Positions 2,551 through 8,401 of a stretch of DNA of 64,000 nucleotides are shown in pieces. The DNA comes from a phage: the NCBI GenBank assembly GCA_036930585.1, contig GCA_036930585.1_3066.1. The stretch is one strand, 5' to 3'. The notes below the pieces were generated by a model. It searched no databases and had not been told where the DNA came from. It saw only the letters and a list, made by a program, of their open reading frames with translations. Every line of letters starts with the position of its first letter. Positions within the stretch are counted from its first letter, which is position 1. A program made the translations under genes and the position numbers.

Positions 2551-3114
2551 TTATTTACCTAGTTTACTTATTATAGCTTCTGCAGCAGCTTTTAGCTTAG
2601 ATGCAGTGTTAATACGATTTTTAATTTCAGTATACGCATCGCCAAGAACATCAAGGCTATCAGAATAAACACTTACACTATTGCGTTCGCTATTTGAAAT
2701 AGAACCTTTAGTTTTGCGGTCAAAATCGGTGTACACGTCTTGAAGATCGCGGGCTGCCTTCTTTGCATCATCCAATGCATCAAGAGCTTTATTCAAAGCA
2801 TTAACGTATTTTTTAGTGTCGAACATATTCTTAGAAATTTTAACAGGTGCGCGTTCAGGAGTAGCTAACACAGATTTAGGAACCTGAGCGCCAGATGCCA
2901 ATTTCTTAGAAATTTTGAAAAATGCTTTATTGAATTTATTTTCTTGACTCATTGTAAAAGAACTATTATCGATGTTGTACATTTCAATAGCTTTAGCTTT
3001 CCACTTAAGAAAATCGCCGCGGTCTTTTGGGTCCAATTGGAAGAATACTTTAGTAAGATCTGCTTCAGATGGTAATTTTGCTGCTTCGGTTAAAAATTCG
3101 GCATAGGTTTTCAT
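2551..3114 (-). CDS. internal-protein-like head protein with N-terminal capsid targeting sequence (187 aa)
   Basis: N-terminus MKTYAEFLTEA resembles the T4 IP capsid-targeting sequence MKTYQEFIAE with a gp21-type (L/I)xE cleavage site. Confidence 0.6.
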   Translation of the reverse strand: MKTYAEFLTEAAKLPSEADLTKVFFQLDPKDRGDFLKWKAKAIEMYNIDNSSFTMSQENKFNKAFFKISKKLASGAQVPKSVLATPERAPVKISKNMFDTKKYVNALNKALDALDDAKKAARDLQDVYTDFDRKTKGSISNSERNSVSVYSDSLDVLGDAYTEIKNRINTASKLKAAAEAIISKLGK

Positions 3115-3203
3115 TTAAAATCCTTGAAATAATTTATCGGTTGGTTATTAATTATTTATTACTTTGTTACTATCCGTAACAGCGTTATCCGAGTGATTCA
3201 AAC

Positions 3204-3231
3204 TAAAAAGCCCCAACCTTTCGGTCGGGGC
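3204..3231 (-). terminator. rho-independent terminator (GCCCCGACC-GAAA-GGTTGGGGC + T5)
   Basis: Minus-strand hairpin followed by TTTTT; 31-bp sequence identical to copy at 3759-3786. Confidence 0.6.
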
Positions 3232-3239
3232 TAAGAATG

Positions 3240-3713
3240 TCATTTGATTTGTTTAGCAGACCAAATGCGGTCTTTAATAATTTTTTGGATGTCTTCAACA
3301 TACTCAAGAGAGTGAACATGTGGATTATCTTTGAAACTATAAGCACGGGCTAACTTTTGGCCTTCGGTTTTGATTACTAAAAGCTCTTTAAGGATAGCTT
3401 CATATTTGGAGATAATTCCTTTAACAATATTTTTCTCTTGTGTGACTTTAGGATCTTCTTTAGGAGCAGGTTTACCTGAAGCCTTTGCAAAAGCAGCGCC
3501 AGTAGCAACTAAACTTTTCCAGGCCATACTAACTGCATTCCCTGTAAATCCTTCGGCTTTCATATCACGAGCAAATTGGAATCGTGATTCATCGGAAGCA
3601 TCTTTATAGGAATATTTACCCGCGGCAATGGCTGCTTTTGCGACAGCTTGAATTTCGGTGCTAGATGCTTCATTTAACACCGCTTCATTTAAAAATTGAG
3701 CATATGATTTCAT
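3240..3713 (-). CDS. internal-protein-like head protein with N-terminal capsid targeting sequence (157 aa)
   Basis: N-terminus MKSYAQFLNEA (CTS-like, LNE-A cleavage motif); Ala/Lys-rich; minus-strand TATAAATA upstream. Confidence 0.6.
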   Translation of the reverse strand: MKSYAQFLNEAVLNEASSTEIQAVAKAAIAAGKYSYKDASDESRFQFARDMKAEGFTGNAVSMAWKSLVATGAAFAKASGKPAPKEDPKVTQEKNIVKGIISKYEAILKELLVIKTEGQKLARAYSFKDNPHVHSLEYVEDIQKIIKDRIWSAKQIK

Positions 3714-3749
3714 CTTATTTCCTGTTTTAATTCGTGGTTTTAATATACT

Positions 3750-3757
3750 TATTTATA
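3750..3757 (-). promoter_or_regulatory. late promoter TATAAATA
   Basis: Exact TATAAATA on minus strand about 37 nt upstream of ATG at 3713. Confidence 0.5.
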
Positions 3758-3758
3758 C

Positions 3759-3786
3759 TAAAAAGCCCCAACCTTTCGGTCGGGGC
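3759..3786 (-). terminator. rho-independent terminator (identical copy of 3204-3231)
   Basis: Same hairpin + T-run; ends the transcript coming from the tRNA / stable-RNA region. Confidence 0.6.
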
Positions 3787-3792
3787 TAAGCC

Positions 3793-4098
3793 TTGCGGCA
3801 ACCTTGTCGGGGTTCCACCTGCTAAGGCAAGTGTTTGTACGAAACGCCGGGATTCGAACCCGGTTATTAAGCAGTTGACGCTACTCAATATTTTTAAAAG
3901 GCCATATCTCGACCATATCCGAACGTTCCGTCAAAAACGCTACTCGGCTTACGGCAAAGATATTTCCTCGAATCGATAATTCGGTGCGCCGTTTCAGCTG
4001 TGATGTAAGGGGACATTAACAGATCGTAAAGATTTGTTAATGCCAGTCCTTACCCAGGGAACATCAGTCCGACGACTTACCGGTAGCGACCCGGTTTC
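3793..4098 (-). ncRNA. candidate stable small RNA(s) of the tRNA region (tRNA-like T-arm motif)
   Basis: About 300 bp with no credible ORF between orf 4099..4449 and a terminator; minus strand contains CCGGG-TTCGAAT-CCCGG (plus coords 3847-3863) without a full cloverleaf; by position analogous to T4 stable RNAs rnaC/rnaD. Confidence 0.35.
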
Positions 4099-4449
4099 TT
4101 AATATTCTTTTAAAGCATCAATCTGTTCACGGCGTTTACGCCATAAATTAATTACTTCATAAGCGGATTCAGCATTTCGAATTGGTCGGCATTTATATAA
4201 AGACTTGCGATTTTGATATTGTGTAGATAACGGAATTTTATCTAAAAGGTCTTTACGTTCAAAGTATTCGTAACCATCTAAGCCAAATGAACGATTTTTG
4301 AGAAATTGCCAATGACCAAATTCGTTTTGAATATAAATATAATCCGCGTGTTGATAAAGTAAATTAATTTCACGAAATGAGATATGTTTTTCATATTCAT
4401 TGAAGTAAAATGTTAAATCATGAACTACTAAATAAACATTACCTTTCAT
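4099..4449 (-). CDS. hypothetical protein (116 aa)
   Basis: ORF track; ATG with GAGGA SD; lies between tRNA-Arg and the candidate stable-RNA region. Confidence 0.55.
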   Translation of the reverse strand: MKGNVYLVVHDLTFYFNEYEKHISFREINLLYQHADYIYIQNEFGHWQFLKNRSFGLDGYEYFERKDLLDKIPLSTQYQNRKSLYKCRPIRNAESAYEVINLWRKRREQIDALKEY

Positions 4450-4467
4450 ATTTTCCTCACTTATAAT

Positions 4468-4543
4468 TGGTCGAGGCAGTAGGGATCGAACCTACGACCC
4501 AGGACTTAGAAGGTCCTTGCTCTTCCTTCTGAGCTATGCCTCG
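4468..4543 (-). tRNA. tRNA-Arg (anticodon UCU)
   Basis: Hand-folded: acceptor CGAGGCA/TGCCTCG, anticodon loop CUUCUAA, T-arm GGTTCGATCC, discriminator A, encoded CCA. Confidence 0.85.
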
Positions 4544-4547
4544 TAAT

Positions 4548-4623
4548 TGGGGTGACCGATGGGAGTCGAACCCATGACTACGAGAATCACAATCTCGAGT
4601 TCTACCAACTAAACTACGGCCAC
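4548..4623 (-). tRNA. tRNA-His (anticodon GUG)
   Basis: Acceptor GTGGCCG/CGGTCAC (one G-U), anticodon stem CGAGA/TCTCG, loop UUGUGAU, discriminator C, CCA encoded; no encoded G-1. Confidence 0.65.
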
Positions 4624-4717
4624 ATTAATACCTACTCCAACAATCAAGATGTCTTCACACGAAATTAAGAGAAGAGTGATCAGTTCAACCCCGATAATCG
4701 CGTCAAGTAGATATTAA

Positions 4718-4733
4718 TGTGACAATTGTCACA
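4718..4733. repeat. perfect 16-bp palindrome TGTGACAATTGTCACA (CRP-consensus-like; also an RNA hairpin)
   Basis: In the 114-bp gap between tRNA-His and tRNA-Asn, 4 nt from the 3' end of tRNA-Asn. Confidence 0.5.
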
Positions 4734-4737
4734 AATT

Positions 4738-4812
4738 TGGCGGACGTGATAGGATTCGAACCTATAACCAATCGCTTAACAGGCGATCGCTCTGCCATTG
4801 AGCTACACATCC
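4738..4812 (-). tRNA. tRNA-Asn (anticodon GUU)
   Basis: Acceptor GGATGTG/CACGTCC, D-stem GCTC/GAGC, anticodon stem ATCGC/GCGAT, loop CUGUUAA, discriminator G, CCA encoded. Confidence 0.7.
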
Positions 4813-4816
4813 AAAT

Positions 4817-4903
4817 TGGTGGGGAGTGATGGAGTCGAACCACCCGAGTCGCAATGACAATGGATTTACAGTCCACACCGCTACCTCTACGGGATAACTC
4901 CCC
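4817..4903 (-). tRNA. tRNA-Tyr (anticodon GUA), long variable arm
   Basis: 87 nt; acceptor GGGGAGT/ACTCCCC, anticodon loop CUGUAAA, long variable arm, T-loop TTCGACT, discriminator A, CCA; D-arm pairing irregular. Confidence 0.6.
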
Positions 4904-4916
4904 TTAATTCTTAATT

Positions 4917-4991
4917 TGGTGGCCCTGGGTGGAATTGAACCACCATCTGGCGATTATGAGTCGCTTGCTTGAACCTTCCAGCTACAGGGCC
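4917..4991 (-). tRNA. tRNA with CAU anticodon (Ile2/lysidine-type, or Met)
   Basis: Acceptor GGCCCTG/CAGGGCC, anticodon loop CUCAUAA, discriminator A, CCA; anticodon arm resembles bacterial tRNA-Ile2. Confidence 0.65.
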
Positions 4992-4992
4992 T

Positions 4993-5068
4993 TGGTGCTG
5001 ATTGACGGAATCGAACCGCCGACCTTCTCATTACAAGTGAGTTGCTCTACCTACTGAGCTAAATCAGC
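4993..5068 (-). tRNA. tRNA-Thr (anticodon UGU)
   Basis: Acceptor GCTGATT/AATCAGC, D-stem GCTC/GAGC, anticodon loop CUUGUAA, T-loop TTCGATT, discriminator A, CCA. Confidence 0.8.
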
Positions 5069-5073
5069 AAAAC

Positions 5074-5163
5074 TGGCGGAGGCGATAGGATTTGAACCTA
5101 TGAGTCGCCGGAGCGACTGCCGGTTTTCAAGACCGGTGCATTAAACCACTCTGCCACACCTCC
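5074..5163 (-). tRNA. tRNA-Ser (anticodon UGA), long variable arm
   Basis: 90 nt; acceptor GGAGGTG/CGCCTCC, anticodon stem CCGGT/ACCGG, loop CUUGAAA, discriminator G, CCA. Confidence 0.8.
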
Positions 5164-5165
5164 AG

Positions 5166-5239
5166 TCTCCATACAAGGATTTGAACCTTGGACCTCCTGA
5201 TCCCAAATCAGGCGCTCTACCAAACTGAGCTACACGGAG
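5166..5239 (-). tRNA. tRNA-Pro (anticodon UGG), CCA not encoded
   Basis: Acceptor CTCCGTG/TATGGAG (two G-U), anticodon stem CCTGA/TCAGG, loop UUUGGGA, discriminator A; 2 nt from tRNA-Ser. Confidence 0.75.
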
Positions 5240-5249
5240 TAAATTAAAT

Positions 5250-5323
<74 letters not shown>

Positions 5324-5328
5324 AAATT

Positions 5329-5415
5329 TGGTGCGAGAAGTGGGACTCGAACCCACAAGGAAATCATTCCGCAGCATTTTAAGTGCTGTGCCTTTACCAA
5401 TTTGGCCATTCTCGC
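5329..5415 (-). tRNA. tRNA-Leu (anticodon UAA), long variable arm
   Basis: 87 nt; acceptor GCGAGAA/TTCTCGC, anticodon stem CAGCA/TGCTG, loop CUUAAAA, T-loop TTCGAGT, discriminator A, CCA. Confidence 0.8.
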
Positions 5416-5421
5416 GTTATA

Positions 5422-6030
5422 TTATTTATTACGTGAAAAAGACTGTTCTATCAATTCTGGACACTTTCGTTCTATCCATTTTCTAGCTTTTTGTGGGCTT
5501 ATACCTATTATTTTAGCAGCTTTACTAACCCATCCAAATTTAGAATAATCGATTTTAACTAATTCTTCGTAAATTTCATCAGTTAAAATCTTTTCATTAA
5601 TATTTACCAGTAAATGATATAATTTGTTATCATTAGCAATTTTAATGAATCTTTTATAGTTTCCGCCTTTACTTAAACCTAATGAAGTAATTGCAGATGA
5701 TATAGTAGCCGAATTTAATAATGCGTTTAAAATTTCTTCATCACTAACATTATAACGCTTTTTATTATTTTTAATATTTTTACCAGCAAAAGTATCAGTT
5801 TGCGAATGACAGTTTGGACATAATAATCTTAAATTTGATTTAAGATGATTTTTGTTATTTCCATCAATATGGTCTAATTGCAGAACAATATGCTTATTTT
5901 GCCATTTTGAAATTTTACAAATTGCACACTCATATGGAAAAATATTTTCTTTTATTATTTTGTCTTTCAGCTTTCCTGTACTAAAATTTGGATGTTTTCC
6001 TTCAAAAATTTCAGCTAATTTAGTATCCAT
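5422..6030 (-). CDS. free-standing HNH homing endonuclease (about 202 aa)
   Basis: HNH motif CAICK...LQLDHIDGNNKNHLKSNLRLLCPNCH; basic C-terminal DNA-binding region; track start 6054 appears non-ATG, first ATG at 6030 (MDTKLAEI); abuts the tRNA cluster. Confidence 0.75.
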   Translation of the reverse strand: MDTKLAEIFEGKHPNFSTGKLKDKIIKENIFPYECAICKISKWQNKHIVLQLDHIDGNNKNHLKSNLRLLCPNCHSQTDTFAGKNIKNNKKRYNVSDEEILNALLNSATISSAITSLGLSKGGNYKRFIKIANDNKLYHLLVNINEKILTDEIYEELVKIDYSKFGWVSKAAKIIGISPQKARKWIERKCPELIEQSFSRNK

Positions 6031-6104
6031 AATATGATTCCCAATTATTAACAAAGGCTCTCAAATAAGAACCCTTGATGATAGAGGGTATTAATCAGTG
6101 CGAT

Positions 6105-6832: not shown

Positions 6833-7017
6833 TATTCACCTTTAGAAATTTTATCCATAACAATAGCAATTAAACCAATTAAAAATGCTACTACAAGTGA
6901 AAACACATTTTCTGCTGTAGTCAATAATCCACATATAAATCCAACAAACATTGAAAAACTAAAAGCGGAAGCAGAAATTGCAATAGCAACATTTCGAATT
7001 AATTCACAACGTTTCAT
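6832..7017 (-). CDS. hypothetical small membrane protein (61 aa)
   Basis: ORF track; hydrophobic core FSFSMFVGFICGLLT...LVVAFLIGLIAIVM; promoter cassette upstream. Confidence 0.45.
   Translation of the reverse strand: MKRCELIRNVAIAISASAFSFSMFVGFICGLLTTAENVFSLVVAFLIGLIAIVMDKISKGE

Positions 7018-7716: not shown

Positions 7717-8401
<685 letters not shown>

Follow-up and report, generated by a model that had tools for sequence, protein, structure and literature searches.

The stretch of DNA analysed here, referred to as the window, comprises 64,000 nt from a T4-like (Tequatrovirus) phage (NCBI GenBank assembly GCA_036930585.1, contig GCA_036930585.1_3066.1), and positions are those of its full length. 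The minus strand, which carries all the RNAs of interest, includes in the direction of transcription ten tRNA genes identified by ARAGORN (5415-4468), an open reading frame (ORF, 4449-4099), two small RNAs named rnaD and rnaC, a conserved trailer and an intrinsic terminator (Table 1). The original prediction, made from the sequence alone, had proposed that the roughly 300 bp between the terminator and the ORF encode stable small RNAs like the two found beside the T4 tRNA genes. They are exactly these two: over its full length the stretch can be aligned with T4 rnaD (NC_000866, 71053-71171) and rnaC (70908-71046), and both are annotated at the homologous place in Aplg8, RB27, Kha5h and T4. The window rnaC is identical to that of T4 at 137 of 139 positions in a gap-free alignment, and the two rnaD versions (120 nt in the window and 119 nt in T4) share 104 identical positions. 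The 312 bases 3787-4098 show 100% identity to Shigella phage ESh16, the stretch is present in 801 phage records, nearly all from Tequatrovirus and relatives, and T4, RB27 and Aplg8 are 94-97% identical to it over its whole length (mean of the four-way alignment, 94%). The region is already known as a textbook T4 annotation and its presence in a T4-like genome is expected. While in T4 and RB27 rnaD adjoins tRNA-Arg, in the window the ORF 4099-4449 intervenes; this ORF is also present in Aplg8 and BW-1 and absent in T4 and RB27. The lack of direct adjacency to tRNA-Arg is a synteny variant and no argument against the orthology of rnaD.

Table 1. Features of the rnaD-rnaC locus, listed in the direction of transcription
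Feature	Position	Strand	Remarks
116-amino acid ORF, phrog_3355 (unknown function)	4099-4449	-	Context, between tRNA-Arg and rnaD; not part of the RNAs
TGCTTTA heptamer	4117-4111	-	Examined and rejected as MotA box
rnaD (species 2 RNA) orthologue	4102-3983	-	120 nt; T4 alignment; annotated in Aplg8 and RB27
rnaD P1 hairpin, ACCGG-GUCGCUA-CCGGU	4079-4095	-	Closing pair A-U in 20, G-C in 6, G-U in 3
rnaD P2, 5' strand GUCGUCG	4070-4076	-	Pairs with 3984-3991; closes the rod body
rnaD P2, 3' strand CGGCG-C-AC, one bulged C	3984-3991	-	Partner of 4070-4076
Spacer GAAUUA between rnaD and rnaC	3977-3982	-	6 nt, A/U-rich; resembles inter-tRNA spacers
rnaC (species 1 RNA) orthologue	3976-3838	-	139 nt; predicted tRNA-like four-way junction
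rnaC acceptor stem, 5' strand CGAUUCG	3969-3975	-	Pairs with 3840-3846; third pair A-U in 13, G-C in 17
rnaC long arm	3899-3968	-	70 nt, in place of a D arm; begins directly after the acceptor stem
Long-arm apical loop UUGACG	3929-3934	-	Proposed kissing partner of 3875-3880; same position in 30/30, both arm types
rnaC third hairpin ("anticodon-like")	3865-3890	-	10-bp stem and 6-nt loop; 9/10 stem pairs changed on both sides; loop conserved
Third-hairpin loop CGUCAA	3875-3880	-	Complementary to 3929-3934
rnaC T arm, 5-bp stem and 7-nt loop UUCGAAU (CCGGGTTCGAATCCCGG)	3847-3863	-	Third stem pair G-C in 15, U-A in 14, U-G in 1
rnaC acceptor stem, 3' strand CGUUUCG	3840-3846	-	Partner of 3969-3975
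3' tail U-ACA-A	3835-3839	-	T4 annotation stops at the first A, 3838 (..GUA)
Conserved 3' trailer	3788-3837	-	50 nt; hairpins CACUUGC-CUUA-GCAGGUG, AACC-CCGACAA-GGUU and GCC-GCAA-GGC; z = -4.47
Intrinsic terminator	3787-3759	-	10-bp stem 3787-3764 (7 G-C), GAAA loop, U run 3763-3759

Neither RNA is recognised by the existing models. Within 3759-4102 ARAGORN found no tRNA or transfer-messenger RNA (tmRNA), the Rfam tRNA model RF00005 had no match even at E<=10, and a permissive scan of 3000-6000 with Rfam 15, which did recover the tRNAs, gave there only chance-level matches far under the gathering scores (isrK, E = 2.1; anti-hemB, E = 6.6; Rev39_5p_UTR, E = 3.4). The covariance-model search suggested in the original prediction thus assigned the stretch to no family. 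The comparison of structures across relatives, suggested at the same time, did succeed and gave folds backed by covariation for both RNAs.

For rnaC, homologues from GenBank phages, IMG/VR and metagenomes amounted to 30 distinct sequences (Tequatrovirus, Kagamiyamavirus, Karamvirus, Kanagawavirus, Moonvirus, Gelderlandvirus, Marfavirus and an unclassified Citrobacter phage). The single-sequence fold has a minimum free energy of -50.2 kcal/mol (z = -4.55). When the 30 sequences were aligned, 97.8% of the cells were paired, versus 33-48% with the partners slid by 1-3 columns; 12 pairs changed on both sides, and the covariation score was reached by none of 500 shuffles. RNAalifold, used blind on the same alignment, produced the same junction with compensatory changes in 24 of its 38 pairs. 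This covariation shows rnaC to be a tRNA mimic with a predicted fold of four helices: an acceptor stem, a long arm, a 10-bp hairpin and a canonical T arm. The acceptor stem consists of 7 bp, five of them Watson-Crick pairs around two invariant U-U oppositions, and is 100% paired; apart from its third pair it is invariant in all sequences. The long arm exists as two very different sequence types with collinear helices, and pairs 23-26/62-65 and 38-41/50-53 (coordinates of alignment A3) covary across both of them. It is separated from the third hairpin by an 8-nt A-rich linker, and one base past this hairpin lies the T arm, which is directly continuous with the acceptor-stem 3' strand. The perfect T-arm-like element that had drawn attention to this region does lie on the minus strand, and the window contains no second copy of it even when two mismatches are allowed (0 expected in shuffled sequence). 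The accompanying statement that no complete cloverleaf surrounds it is true for the tRNA detectors; the T arm nevertheless sits in a complete four-way tRNA-like fold that includes an acceptor stem.

There is good but not overwhelming comparative evidence that the apical loop of the rnaC long arm pairs with the loop of the third hairpin. The latter is CGUCAA in 25 sequences and CGCCAA in the five from Marfavirus, and the apical loop always matches: Marfavirus changes both loops (UUGGCG/CGCCAA) so that an A-U pair becomes G-C. In the loop-loop columns all six of six pairs are formed, with 100% of the cells paired. The calculated stabilities of the matched loop duplexes are -5.5 and -7.6 kcal/mol, compared with -0.4 and -4.9 kcal/mol for the mixed ones, and the probability of finding the hexamer in a shuffled long arm is 0.02. 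The sequence UGACGG, found in type II arms at their 3' base, was also considered as a general loop partner and was discarded since it is missing from type I arms. If the contact forms, the "anticodon-like" loop is occupied and therefore could not decode. This bears on the possibility that rnaC is a chargeable tRNA-like adaptor, aminoacylated after CCA repair to serve a non-ribosomal or ribosomal target, which we consider very unlikely. The acceptor stem, the discriminator-like U and the T arm are what such an adaptor would need, and the five Marfavirus sequences encode U-CCA-A, a perfect tRNA end. However, 24 of the 30 sequences, the window included, encode a U-ACA-A tail and Citrobacter phage Ursula encodes U-ACA-G, and the T4 annotation ends in ..GUA; there is neither a D arm nor a 7-nt anticodon loop, the loop that takes its place would be engaged in the kissing contact, the tRNA models reject rnaC, and no synthetase identity set was recognisable by inspection.

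The second RNA, rnaD, was compared among 29 distinct homologues, in which 97% of the cells were paired and seven pairs changed on both sides. Covariation shows a predicted architecture consisting of a 5' hairpin (P1) followed by a rod of helices P2, P3 and P4 split by internal loops and capped by a variable tip. More distant versions come from Karamvirus, Jiaodavirus and the Vequintavirinae phages W70 and A73; those of Karamvirus and Jiaodavirus were folded separately and have the same architecture. The P1 stem of W70 differs in sequence yet still pairs. In a terminator scan P1 was flagged as terminator-like on the plus strand merely for being a hairpin. The 7-bp helix P2 is invariant and 100% paired in the 29 sequences, with the terminal G-C pair becoming A-U in Jiaodavirus. 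The short helix P3, N-G-U-U/A-G-C-W, varies (U-A in 16 sequences, A-U in 7, unpaired in 6, and one U-G to C-G change) and is replaced in Karamvirus and Jiaodavirus by other complementary sequences (UUUAAU/AUUAAA and AGAAUU/AAUUUCU). A CCC bulge is conserved in every lineage, and the long tip hairpin keeps its base pairing although its sequence varies from lineage to lineage. Tandem G-A pairs could form in a purine-rich internal loop (GACUGA/GAAA) that only the T4-like and W70 versions possess. With respect to T4, the window rnaD retains the 5' hairpin, the GUCGUCGGACUGA..GUUCCCUG core and the CACAGC.GAAACGGCGCACC 3' end, reading ...GGCGCACC; the cores differ by one extra G in T4 and one A/U substitution, and the tip hairpin alone has diverged.

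Other structures were considered for rnaD. The core resembles a hammerhead ribozyme (CUGA-N-G ... GAAAC, with a suggestive variable N), but stem I is missing, position A9 is a U and U16.1 is a G; in addition, no Rfam hammerhead model matched, and the motif is absent from the Karamvirus and Jiaodavirus homologues. A tRNA-like arrangement with P2 as acceptor stem was rejected for lack of a T arm, the presence of a 26-nt 5' extension and a tail that is mostly not N-CCA. The alternative core pairings CUG(36-38)/C-W-G and CUGAUG/CAUCACAG are uncompensated, with a U-U mismatch at U37-W112 in 13 of the 29 sequences, and the pairing N40-G-U-U/A-G-C-W fits the core better. A search for the rnaD core in 185,579 bacterial genomes gave 0 matches. 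The location of rnaD right after a tRNA gene was seen directly for W70, Karamvirus and Jiaodavirus, and its presence in the rV5-like phages W70 and A73, outside the Straboviridae, implies a horizontal spread along with tRNA arrays.

A quite different view of the region would be that it specifies small proteins, or an independent unit transcribed in the middle mode from a MotA promoter at 4111-4117. ORFs of 81 amino acids on the plus strand and of 53 and 40 amino acids on the minus strand can be drawn, and some GenBank records show "hypothetical proteins" in this place. In 20 distinct homologous regions, however, the longest stop-free stretches have 46-95 codons, as in shuffled sequence (mean 67, 95th percentile 101), they differ from phage to phage (in T4, 47 codons on the opposite strand), and no conserved reading frame was found; moreover, 1-nt insertions or deletions separate the rnaD genes of close relatives. 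A protein-coding role was rejected on these grounds, and the earlier judgement that the stretch contains no credible ORF holds. As for the promoter, T4 middle promoters have a MotA box, (a/t)(a/t)(a/t)TGCTTtA, and a good -10 element (TAtaaT) 12 +/- 1 bp downstream (PMC2988021). The MotA-box-like TGCTTTA that had been pointed out is present, on the minus strand; its status as a promoter does not stand. The heptamer occurs 31 times in the window versus about 17 expected, so that its presence alone says little. It is made of the end codons GAT GCT TTA AAA GAA TAT TAA of ORF 4099-4449 (C-terminus ..ALKEY*), reads TTCTTTA or TACTTTA in relatives that share this ORF, and is missing wherever rnaD comes straight after tRNA-Arg, as in T4 and RB27. 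No match to a -10 element was found 11-13 bp past it, the hexamers being AGAAAC, GAAACC (at the -10 position) and AAACCG, and a start about 30 bp downstream would lie inside rnaD. Both the middle-mode unit and the small proteins are thus the least probable of the explanations considered here, to the point of being hardly tenable.

The features that surround the two RNAs suggest how they are made. The strong terminator was found where it had been reported, with its limits slightly corrected from 3759-3786, and it ends the transcription unit formed by the tRNAs, rnaD and rnaC. The entire unit is preceded, on its own strand, by a late-promoter-like TATAAATA at 6392-6385. In T4 the accumulation of both RNAs is late; Northern blotting confirmed RNAC, and rnaD was classed as late from RNA-seq, the Northern probes having covered RNAC and ssrA only (PMC9697503). 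The upstream TATAAATA, a match to the consensus only, fits this late accumulation. It may be proposed that rnaD and rnaC are co-transcribed as the 3' part of the tRNA-cluster transcript, ended by the terminator, and that host tRNA-processing enzymes then excise both. RNase P would make the 5' end of rnaC, possibly at C3975 rather than at the annotated U3976. The acceptor/T-arm minihelix is the minimal RNase P substrate, and it is for this reason that we infer an RNase P origin of this end; in other genera, moreover, rnaC sits between tRNAs with tRNA-like A/U spacers. The sequences of both RNAs, under the names species 1 and species 2, date back to the 1970s, and a dimeric species 2-species 1 precursor has served as a substrate in work on RNase P and RNase E. 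There is good support for a joint transcript with the tRNAs from which the tRNA-processing enzymes would cut out the two RNAs, and it is very nearly certain that the two elements are the orthologues of T4 rnaD and rnaC generated in this way. The stop codon of ORF 4099-4449, a gene with a GAGGA ribosome-binding site 6 nt ahead of its ATG, overlaps the 5' end of rnaD, and therefore only cleavage at this codon can separate the mRNA from the stable RNA.

Between rnaC and the terminator lies the conserved trailer, whose first 35 nt or so (two hairpins) are near-invariant in Tequatrovirus, Dhaka-like and Mosig-like phages and Gaprivervirus, exceeding the conservation of the rnaD tip; where rnaC is missing the trailer directly follows rnaD. 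Trailer and terminator could form a third released RNA of about 75 nt. These elements raise the possibility that rnaD and rnaC are a cis-acting structured 3' module that guides or times the processing of the upstream tRNAs and blocks 3' exonucleases, with no role once released. In Tequatrovirus the RNAs are always the last elements ahead of the terminator and are followed by this structured trailer, and rnaD abuts a tRNA 3' end in T4, RB27, JS98, W70, Karamvirus and Jiaodavirus, all of which speaks for such a module. Yet rnaC is internal to the arrays in other genera, with tRNAs on both sides, a 351-nt ORF separates rnaD from the nearest tRNA in the window, mature RNAC reaches levels detectable by Northern blot late in T4 infection (PMC9697503), and the conservation of the loop sequences goes beyond the needs of a nuclease block. 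We consider a purely cis-acting role unlikely.

The distribution of rnaC is that of a cassette, which moves within the tRNA arrays of at least seven other phage groups. In EcS1, Pet-CM3-4, fGh-Ecl01 and Melville it occupies the whole space from one tRNA gene to the next, and these internal copies are preceded by a 6-7-nt A/U spacer after the CCA end of the upstream tRNA. Conversely, in JS98 and several Mosig-like and Dhaka-like contigs the trailer comes directly after rnaD and rnaC is cleanly missing. Pattern scans of IMG/VR and metagenomes added few clades (e.g., Edwardsiella phage PEi20 and Marfavirus-like contigs), the other matches being mostly GenBank phages. One Karamvirus-like IMG/VR contig (L008) includes a divergent rnaD-like element at 6859 and rnaC at 7773-7905, on the same strand and 0.9 kb apart; thus, the two RNAs also co-occur outside Tequatrovirus, although in that contig they are not adjacent.

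A published host-adaptation experiment bears on the role of rnaD. One single-nucleotide polymorphism (SNP) inside rnaD was common to all three lines of phage BW-1 that gained virulence on E. coli ECOR34, and the authors could not interpret it (PMC12685909). In BW-1 (OR125554) the SNP, at position 164264, maps to the rnaD tip hairpin. This tip reads CACAG-UUUUA-CUAUG, while in each of the four natural relatives that share this tip type the 3' strand is CUGUG; the T-to-C change, which is A-to-G on the RNA strand, restores the C-G pair of the natural relatives. With the SNP the predicted fold of BW-1 rnaD goes from -25.9 to -31.0 kcal/mol and the family architecture is regained. These results suggest that an intact rnaD helps on some hosts.

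The alternative is that rnaC and rnaD are functionless leftovers, i.e., decayed tRNA genes or spacers that are stable through their structure and are freed by the processing of the neighbouring tRNAs. This would agree with the growth of T4 tRNA-region deletions on laboratory strains, with the absence of rnaC from several genera and of rnaD from the loci examined in others, and rnaC does look like a tRNA derivative. Decay, on the other hand, would not fix loops amid compensatory stem changes, as is the case for the rnaC third hairpin with nine of ten pairs changed, nor would it be expected to keep an architecture through two long-arm sequences and across Straboviridae and Vequintavirinae, and the mutation that became fixed in three independent phage lines repairs a stem pair of rnaD. 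We regard the leftover explanation as improbable, even slightly more so than a cis-acting module; the BW-1 SNP fits a host-specific, trans-acting role better.

What this role could be is a matter for tentative proposals. Both RNAs may act in trans as protein-binding decoys or mimics, and not as decoders or antisense regulators, a possibility that we put forward while considering it somewhat doubtful. In such a scheme the partner of rnaC would be a protein, of host or phage origin, able to recognise the acceptor/T-arm face of tRNA, and the benefit would depend on the host strain. Deletions of the T4 tRNA region grow on laboratory strains; a host-strain-dependent benefit would explain this dispensability together with the strong conservation. 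A more specific version, to which we give still less credence, is that a self-locked rnaC mimic with its acceptor/T-arm face exposed, spreading as a cassette in the tRNA arrays of many enterobacterial T4-like phages, and the unrelated rod rnaD are host-strain-specific decoys for counter-defence or takeover, titrating a tRNA-binding or RNA-binding host factor. The repair of the rnaD stem pair, the only mutation fixed in the three lines adapting to ECOR34, hints in this direction.

Several points weigh against the explanation as a whole. The kissing contact, good but not overwhelming as its evidence is, rests on one compensatory event in a single clade plus strict conservation, and it could join two molecules rather than one. 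In the Kanagawavirus lineage of Enterobacter phage CIP9 (L006, L010 and L023 among the sequences compared) the T loop is UGCAUGC in place of UUCGAAU, with loss of the U54-A58 type signature, and the junction strand GGCCUU is changed to CGCCUC, the remaining rnaC being conserved; this non-canonical loop weakens models that need a canonical tRNA elbow. rnaC is absent from Dhaka-like, Mosig-like and Gaprivervirus phages. The RNA ends were transferred from the T4 annotation and may be off by at least 1 nt. The direction of the BW-1 SNP was taken from the "T-C transition" of the paper and the reference base T at 164264. The function of both RNAs has been called unknown in reviews from 2010 to 2025 (PMC3014915, PMC9697503, PMC12685909), and the decoy function proposed here is a tentative candidate. 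Taken as a whole, that is, identity, structure and function together, we nevertheless consider the account given here highly probable as the best explanation of the locus.

Some neighbouring features deserve mention. Within the tRNA array, the 114-nt gap between tRNA-His and tRNA-Asn (4624-4737, minus strand) is unannotated and structured (minimum free energy -30.7 kcal/mol, z = -3.5), and is conserved in 356 phage records including T4-like phages of Klebsiella and Enterobacter at about 80% identity; it may be another noncoding RNA. An HNH homing-endonuclease gene (5422-6054, minus strand; phrog_14736, E = 6e-124) adjoins tRNA-Leu, at the place occupied by tRNA-Gln in T4, RB27 and Aplg8, and no tRNA-Gln was found anywhere in the window. 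Past the terminator there is a second late-promoter-like TATAAATA at 3757-3750, which precedes the second of two paralogous minus-strand genes of unknown function (phrog_2280; 2551-3114 and 3240-3713). Both start with MK(T/S)YA(E/Q)FL, and genes with the same start appear to follow the trailer in Mosig-like contigs.

Our search of the literature for functional or structural studies of rnaC and rnaD found only statements of unknown function, and the comparative structural detail described here, not found in the searchable literature, is new. It makes the function more testable and leaves the classification of the RNAs unchanged. Most GenBank records leave the two genes blank or place spurious "hypothetical proteins" there, and Rfam has no model; the structures could serve as the starting point for Rfam families, by which the annotation of this place would be corrected in hundreds of phages.

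Compared with T4, the locus has the same order and strand, the same 6-nt spacer, trailer and terminator, and the same location at the 3' end of the tRNA cluster. The differences are that rnaD starts 2 nt after tRNA-Arg in T4 while the 116-amino acid ORF lies between them in the window, that ..CACC-G is encoded in the window and ..CACC-A in T4, and those already described for the rnaD tip and the extra G in the T4 core. With canonical tRNAs (RF00005) rnaC shares the stacking of an acceptor stem of 7 bp on a T stem of 5 bp with no nucleotide in between, the UUCGAAU T loop, a single unpaired base after the stem, the setting in a tRNA array and the tRNA-type spacers. It differs from them in that a 70-nt arm stands in for the D arm, an anticodon loop of 7 nt is missing, arms 2 and 3 are joined by an A-rich linker of 8 nt, the acceptor stem contains two U-U oppositions and the encoded tail is ACA rather than CCA. 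The combination of an acceptor/T-arm module recognisable by tRNA enzymes with non-tRNA parts in a non-decoding molecule is also that of the tRNA-like domain of tmRNA, of YrlA and of the plant-virus tRNA-like structures. Unlike tmRNA and YrlA, rnaC has no tag ORF and no Ro-binding stem, and no model of these families matches it, the YrlA and permuted-tmRNA matches falling only on true tRNAs. To our knowledge, a loop-loop lock is not a feature of the tmRNA, YrlA or plant-virus tRNA-like families. The closest parallels to the proposed contact are the kissing complexes of ColE1 RNA I/RNA II and of HIV-1 TAR/TAR* and DIS. The rnaC case differs from these in that both loops belong to one 139-nt molecule and their partnering is predicted only; it resembles them in consisting of two hairpin loops with six fully complementary bases, a loop-loop pairing of a length that is stable in the ColE1 and HIV-1 systems.

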